Source of the DNA: Tichowtungia aerotolerans | Lineage (GTDB): Bacteria > Verrucomicrobiota > Kiritimatiellia > Kiritimatiellales > Tichowtungiaceae | Assembly: GCF_009905215.1 (NCBI RefSeq) | Contig: NZ_CP047593.1 | Location: 1,026,900-1,058,899, forward strand | Direction of reading: 5' to 3' | Length of the DNA: 32,000 bases | Shown: positions 10,615 through 11,184 of the stretch, in pieces | How the letters are laid out: each line of letters opens with the position of its first letter | How positions within the stretch are numbered: position 1 is the first letter of the stretch | Position numbers and translations under genes: made by a program | The notes under the pieces: generated by a model | The model's database searches: none | Seen by the model: the letters and a program-made list of their open reading frames with translations, nothing else | Told to the model about the DNA's origin: nothing

Positions 10615-11184
10615 TTTTTTGAGGAGACGGCGGGTACCCGAACGCCTAACTGGGACACAAGTGGCCTCCTGCAAACACGACGTAATAAACTGGGGCAACC
10701 CGAATCCGTCGTGATGGGAATCTGGCCTGATCCCTCCGCGCTTGATTGGTCCCGCCATCTCCGGTTTTTAAAACCTGATTTGAATGAGGAGCCGACCCTG
10801 CTGCAGGCCCGACACCAACTGGAATCTGTCTTTATGACGGACAACCGCTTCGCTCTTGAATGGGAAGTATGCAGGGACAGCCGACCAACGGGAGACAGGC
10901 TTTCGCTCGCGAAAGCAGTGACCGAAGGGAACGGCAAACCGAATGATTTTCTGGGACGTCCGGAATGCTTGCGAGCACCGGACAGCCGCCGCCCGCTGCA
11001 AAGCGGGAATCCCGGCCGACTGAGCCCGCACGGTTGTTTGAGCGGTGCCTGTCACCGACTCGCACTTGAAGAGAAAACGGCCTGAGTTTGATTGGGGAGA
11101 AGGACTGATCGATAGCGAAAGTTGCAAAACATAAAAACGATCAGATGGGGGATTTTTGTGCTTTACTCAGAAGGGCTTAATGGT
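10615..11184 (+). ncRNA. Candidate bridge/seek RNA region in the 3' non-coding end of IS110-A
   Basis: An unusually long non-coding region lies downstream of the transposase, as in the IS1111 subgroup where the guide RNA is encoded 3' of the gene. It contains GCGCTTGAT (10738-10746), identical to the IS left end (9427-9435). No structure could be computed by hand. Confidence 0.3.

Follow-up and report, generated by a model that had tools for sequence, protein, structure and literature searches.

Integron setting and the two element copies

The window, by which we mean the entire 32,000-nt stretch of Tichowtungia aerotolerans DNA analysed here, lies in the cassette array of an integron and is full of attC-like repeats; the cassette ORFs within it are on the minus strand, and the integron integrase is found about 0.9 kb past the right window edge (TIGR02249, 441 bits against a cut-off of 265). 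Two of the attC sites are interrupted by copies of one insertion sequence, A and B (Table 1), which a search of the genome finds to be its only intact copies. The insertion point is the same in both, a single base separating it from the GTT of the R'' box, and both run opposite to the cassettes. The element boundary (9432-11184) was set by means of copy B and of relatives with differing ends or a differing last base, and the closest named relatives of the element come from Kiritimatiellales and other Verrucomicrobiota.

Table 1. Coordinates (window positions) of the two element copies, the interrupted attC and the parts of copy A
Feature	Position	Strand	Details
IS copy A	9432-11184	+	1753 bp; within R'' arm of attC, opposite to cassette genes, without target duplication
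IS copy B	24068-25820	-	Identical to copy A; equivalent position of another attC
Left part of interrupted attC	9376-9431		9427-9431 is the left target (5 nt)
Right part of interrupted attC	11185-11191		Core KG, then R'' box
Left end	9432-9455	+	11-nt extension with core TG, handshake bases AT and putative -10 at 9433-9438; subterminal inverted repeat 9443-9455
DEDD/Tnp recombinase, 351 aa	9559-10614	+	D15, E62, D100, D103 and S268 present
Module 1, target-binding loop 1	10625-10760	+	Outer stem 10625-10632 with 10753-10760; U-tract at 10765-10769
Right-target guide 1	10644-10650	+	Complement of attC R'' box; then conserved TGG
Left-target guide 1, core, handshake	10738-10746	+	5 nt + 2 nt + AT matching the donor; the 9-mer of the preliminary description
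Module 2, second target-binding loop	10796-10876	+	Right-target guide 10813-10819; left-target guide, core and handshake AA at 10852-10860
Hairpin insertion of about 58 nt	10878-10935	+	Private to this element; between modules 2 and 3
Module 3, donor-binding loop	10938-11041	+	Right-donor guide 10942-10951, 7/10 with left end; left-donor guide, core and handshake TT at 11030-11038
Right end	11162-11184	+	Putative -35 at 11162-11167; subterminal inverted repeat 11167-11179; 5-nt extension

Judging from its domains (PF01548 and PF02371) and a score of 204.9 bits for NF033542 against a cut-off of 140, the recombinase of copy A is an intact-looking protein of the IS110 family in the broad sense. 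The subterminal inverted repeats match at 12 of 13 positions, within the 11–13 bp characteristic of IS1111 elements; the terminal extensions of 11 nt on the left (11–13 nt in close relatives) and 5 nt on the right depart from the IS1111 rule of 7 (or 6) + 3 bp. In relatives with a differing last base, the base at the left junction comes from the target and the core there from the donor, and at the right junction the base is that of the donor and the core that of the target; by these junctions the crossover falls to the left of the 2-nt core. When the two ends are joined, the -35-like hexamer comes to lie 18 nt from the -10-like hexamer, and, since junction promoters are known from IS1111 elements, we infer by analogy that the joined ends may act as a promoter.

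Other mobile elements are also present in the array. A second IS110-family element, with a protein of 367 aa that is 23% identical to that of copy A, is present in several genomic copies: the one at 15017-16651 has an end adjoining the opposite arm of an attC, and the one at 20005-21305 has its 3' non-coding region split by an IS256. IS256 itself is seen as an identical pair in inverted orientation (21306-22754 and 25862-27310), and, because one of the two shares its attC with IS copy B, the segment between them may have been inverted. The array further contains an exact duplication of 299 nt (28456-28754 and 29774-30072).

Architecture of the 3' tail

From the transposase stop to the right end of copy A there are 570 nt (10615-11184). 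A preliminary description, made from the sequence alone, had proposed that this tail holds a bridge or seek RNA, and had called the tail unusually long and its small ORFs devoid of coding support. The ORFs are indeed eroded among close relatives, those at +10711-11085 and -10768-11127 being broken in 14 of 14 and that at -10832-11065 in 9 of 14. The length is about twice the ~260 nt of ISPa21, but intact relatives have 512–605 nt, so 570 nt is normal for the lineage. Two of the checks that the description suggested came back empty: an Rfam covariance-model scan of the tail matched no family, and the 570 nt folded as a whole show no unusual stability (z -0.64). A scan for promoters and terminators likewise found nothing within the tail. 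The third check, of guide pairing, bore the proposal out, in that the loops match the attC target and the element ends as in an IS1111-style guide RNA, albeit with three modules and not two.

Homologues of the element number in the thousands, and the comparisons below used the subsets named with each result. In an alignment of the tails of 33 distinct elements (47–100% protein identity), three repeats of one layout can be recognized, each consisting of a closing CC, a 5' guide, a TGG-type motif, an inner hairpin, CC, a 3' guide, the core, a dinucleotide and another TGG-type motif. At about 41% identity, relatives from Vibrio, Alteromonas, Pseudoalteromonas and Nitrospirota still have this layout, as do Calditrichota-like and other relatives whose identity falls to about 35%. 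Strong compensatory change is seen in the outer stems of modules 1 and 2 and in an inner stem of module 3: they are 93% paired, with double-sided changes in 17 of 27 stem pairs (0 of 500 shuffles; slid controls 31–47%), a score that leans toward structure, the stems having been derived from the same alignment. A covarying closing stem was looked for in module 3 and not found.

Spacing, taken from a hand-assembled table of related and hence non-independent elements, differs between the modules. Modules 2 and 3 are 19–22 nt apart in 29 of 30 elements, the exception being the present element with its private 58-nt hairpin, of which the genome has no other copy; modules 1 and 2 are 59–68 nt apart in the close clade, with hundreds of nt more in one other clade. 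Short REP-like hairpin insertions also interrupt the guide RNA in the 3' regions of L003 and L022, one of them resembling by eye the insertion at 10878-10935. A sequence-only model of module 2 finds that module in held-out relatives, and does not find module 1, ISPa21 or IS4321. We base a probable origin of the modules by duplication on the layout they have in common and, for the gammaproteobacterial clade, on similar motifs, and not on profile homology.

Left-target guide 1 covaries with the left flank of its own element (permutation p=0.0004, n=18), and does so again in the gammaproteobacterial clade, an independent replicate (p=0.0006, n=23); covariation of module 1 with the right end is absent (p=0.43). 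Comparison across the elements shows, at the level of sequence, that module 1 spells the insertion site. It folds equally well on the opposite strand, and is often, if not universally, followed by a U-tract, which is not flagged as a terminator; a contrast of U-tracts between the modules was uninformative, the control window having overlapped the donor guide. Together the guides give about 9–11 nt with mismatches, and many sites match them only in part. Although the genome contains 131 perfect occurrences of the module-1 word, both insertions (like most of those of relatives) lie in attC, so that a further determinant of specificity beyond the guides is needed, probably the folding of attC.

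These assignments recast what had been said of two motifs in this region. The 9-mer at 10738-10746 is, as described, exactly that at 9427-9435, and occurs elsewhere only in the second IS copy; however, it is no copy of the left end, 9427-9431 being attC flank. Consisting of the left-target guide, the core and the handshake dinucleotide, it necessarily resembles the left junction, and the part of donor guide once ascribed to it falls instead to the loop with 10942-10951 and 11030-11038. The exact 9-mer is seen in 0.5% of shuffled regions, but any junction-derived 9-mer in 11%, on account of which the 9-mer alone is weak evidence; it is the covariation that gives it meaning. The stretch 10637-10650 had been likened to attC inverse cores: 10644-10650 is a guide, while the 'GCGAAC-like' part amounts to a closing CC pair and variable bases.

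In module 3, the left-donor (3') guide agrees with the final 5 nt of the element (4.57 of 5, permutation p=5e-5) and the right-donor (5') guide with the left end (permutation p=5e-4); rare right-end variants are mirrored exactly, and the cross-controls for donor and target guides are not significant (p 0.05–0.87). The same comparison shows module 3 to spell what would be the circle junction, i.e., right end, core and left end. We hold the target assignment of module 1 and the donor assignment of module 3 with great confidence, and that the tail encodes a guide RNA can be taken as nearly certain.

Module 2 tracks the target across 11 lineages with differing targets, which include elements retargeted to the other attC arm or to unrelated sites (right guide p=1.6e-4, left guide p=2e-5; from a hand-built table that leaves out the core-CG lineage, whose right (5') guide 2 was not placeable). 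On the protein tree these represent at least three separate retargeting events or branches. Within single clades, covariation of the left (3') guide is weak (p=0.06–0.10; combined 0.02–0.03). In the core-CG lineage all three modules carry CG, and there and in L078 module 2 looks degenerate; every intact relative examined nonetheless has it, with protein identity as low as about 35%. The comparison shows that module 2, too, spells the insertion site, if less exactly than module 1; very likely, then, it reads target DNA. A hybrid excision loop, pairing with left target and right donor, was also considered for module 2 and rejected, its 5' guide reading the target and not the left end.

Relation to known guide-RNA systems

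The element is IS1111-like, with most hallmarks of that group, but it is not a member of the IS1111-attC group as defined in PMC11187229 and PMC13604230. In common with the attC-targeting IS1111-family elements with seekRNAs (ISKpn4, ISPst6, ISPa25, ISPa21; Siddiquee et al. 2024, PMC11187229), it has a long non-coding region downstream of the transposase gene, subterminal inverted repeats, no target duplication, a top-strand complement lying 5' of the bottom-strand match, and entry into the R'' arm of attC in opposite orientation to the cassette. Thus, the preliminary description was right in locating the RNA downstream of the transposase, in IS1111 style, although the element itself falls outside the classic IS1111-attC group. 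This exclusion follows from a transposase only 20.6% identical to the ISPa21 protein of pME-1a, when group members share 46–86% among themselves (PMC11187229), and from an insertion point that differs from that of ISKpn4 and ISPa21, 6 nt before the R'' GTT. Long seekRNAs, moreover, are about 150–170 nt, compared with the ~570-nt, three-module tail seen here. The transposase has the GL-P----S(t)G motif region without the GL-P, and ISPa21 and IS4321, to which it is 21–22% identical, group apart from it in a tree with long branches and only these two references.

A parallel might also be struck with the bridge RNAs of IS621 and ISCro4 (Durrant et al. 2024, PMC11208160; Hiraizumi et al. 2026, PMC13626964; PDB 8WT6, 9T56), in which a target loop and a donor loop each pair with both DNA strands, around a 2-nt core and with handshake guides set to favour insertion. 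By sequence covariation, modules 1 and 3 have such a two-strand target loop, two-strand donor loop and handshakes. In contrast to those systems, the RNA here is 3' of the gene, the guide order is reversed, the core is TG/KG with tolerated mismatch, and there are two target loops rather than one, giving three modules where the IS621 type has exactly two guide loops; the protein similarity is remote (E about 1e-7).

Two further systems offer partial likenesses. CazIS110-1, with a target-loop-only RNA beside its bridge RNA (Sun et al., bioRxiv 2025.10.25.684509), illustrates how a loop reading only the target could exist alongside a full bridge unit and divide the work with it, but there the target-only RNA comes from the same loop as a shorter transcript, whereas the present element encodes a distinct second loop that has a guide and handshake of its own. 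TIGR stem-loop arrays (Faure et al. 2025, PMC12045711) likewise have repeated units with two short guides and conserved box motifs, bound by a related Nop-type domain; here, however, there are only three units, one of them a donor loop, and they accompany a DEDD recombinase in a mobile IS. The bridge RNAs of IS110 elements have been described as a single two-stem unit (PMC12045711). In the literature covered, published RNAs have two loops, multi-loop donor regions or structural variety, with no second target loop, and a three-loop (target-target-donor) bridge RNA was not found in a search that left most subscription papers and figures (e.g., the multi-loop IS1111 structures of Durrant et al.) outside its reach. 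The mechanism class has been known since 2024; the conserved three-module architecture appears to be undescribed.

Handshakes and the possible role of the second target loop

In IS621, strand exchange is followed by pairing of two handshake bases, adjacent to the core, with the partner DNA, such that insertion is favoured and excision disfavoured (PMC13626964). Across 24 lineages, tabulated by hand and not independent where related, the handshake of module 1 equals the donor in 19 and that of module 3 equals the target in 21, changing when the target changes; that of module 2 equals the donor in 1. As this comparison shows, modules 1 and 3 have their handshakes arranged in the manner of IS621, in the sense predicted to favour insertion. 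The insertion bias of module 2 relative to module 1 is lower in 10 of the lineages, equal in 14 and higher in none, and in the present element the handshake AA of module 2 has the same net bias as module 1.

The explanation that best accounts for the whole, and which we consider probable, is an attC-targeting IS110-family guide-RNA gene with two target loops and a donor loop. Circularisation would form a promoter transcribing gene and tail, and recombinase dimers would bind the loops. Module 1 would act as the main site-selecting loop, perhaps as a separate seekRNA-like species, in view of its loose spacing from the rest and the U-tract that often follows it; target-loop-only RNAs do occur in nature (PMC11187229; bioRxiv 2025.10.25.684509). 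Modules 2 and 3, given their fixed spacing and the weaker handshake of module 2, would most likely form a two-loop bridge unit that also serves steps which a full handshake would inhibit, e.g., circle formation. Against this, a half-match study reports that target pairing is unnecessary for excision in IS621 (bioRxiv 2026.08.31.748434). This division of labour between module 1 and modules 2 and 3 is put forward tentatively, at rather less than an even chance: the present element tolerates the 58-nt insertion between modules 2 and 3, and, because the AA of its module 2 has a net bias equal to that of module 1, an excision role lacks direct support in this element.

Alternatively, module 2 might confer an additional specificity, so that more of the variable attC sites are open to entry. 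Guide 2 is clearly better than guide 1 at three sites (4 vs 2 in L145, 5 vs 2 in L146, 4 vs 3 in L028), is richer in U, making wobble pairs possible (1.44 vs 1.0 per 4 nt), and is identical to guide 1 in only 4 of 48 pairs. Yet the best-of-two match is undiminished when guide 2 is shuffled among elements (p=0.58), the two guides of one element are alike (p=0.005 and 0.0003), and, with small numbers, two attC-like sites of the genome that are perfect for guide 2 stand empty whereas both occupied sites match guide 1; we regard such widening as unlikely. It is more improbable still that module 2 represents a duplicate that has been retained, or a structural spacer, binding protein but no longer reading DNA, with modules 1 and 3 as the working guide. 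The weak covariation of its left guide within clades and its degenerate look in the core-CG lineage and L078 would fit such a spacer, but its retention in every intact relative examined, its covarying stem, and the fact that in independent lineages both its guides and its core bases change along with the target speak against it.

The exact match of the 9-mer to the left junction remains in keeping with the ordinary two-loop RNA originally envisaged, in which the 9-mer, as a copy of the left end, would be the donor guide; nevertheless, five of the nine positions fall outside the element and vary in step with the target, no covariation links module 1 to the right end, and a separate donor loop is present, leaving that version very improbable. 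Least tenable of all is a tail without any guide RNA, i.e., a coding region or a protein-binding element acting at the DNA level. The empty Rfam scan, the unremarkable folding of the whole region and the strand-indifferent fold of module 1 could be seen in this light, but the ORFs are unconserved, the paired positions change in compensatory fashion, and the DNA sites with which the tail covaries lie at distances of hundreds to more than 1000 bases.

Returning to the reading with split labour, the bridge RNAs published so far combine a single target loop with a single donor loop, and their insertion-favouring handshake suppresses excision (PMC13626964). Two target loops, kept across several phyla and reprogrammed together with the target, suggest a natural way round this trade-off or a means of coping with variable targets. 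More speculatively than for the division of labour itself, a widespread IS110 clade may have hard-wired, at a single locus, two functionally different target loops, an insertion-tuned seekRNA-like one and a weaker-handshake one coupled to the donor loop. If so, insertion and circle formation would be controlled separately, and the clade would be a natural three-guide bridge system addressing the insertion-versus-excision trade-off of IS621. These patterns bear on the open question of seekRNAs versus bridge RNAs and on the design of bridge editors. The clade, moreover, is common in environmental bacteria as a distinct lineage whose insertions break up integron attC sites at the R'' box.

Among the relatives, a Calditrichota-like subclade (L010, L013, L040, L042, L051, L055) has been retargeted to the opposite attC arm, about 14 nt from the core, and in one of its branches the core has changed from TG to CG. 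L087 (G370:C1:2003847-2007890) has tandem partial duplications of the guide-RNA region, including a repeated piece of module 2. Finally, the T. aerotolerans genome itself contains a scrambled remnant of a sister element (C1:983849-984173), in which a piece of the RNA region precedes a transposase fragment and left-target guide 1 matches another attC variant of the same genome.
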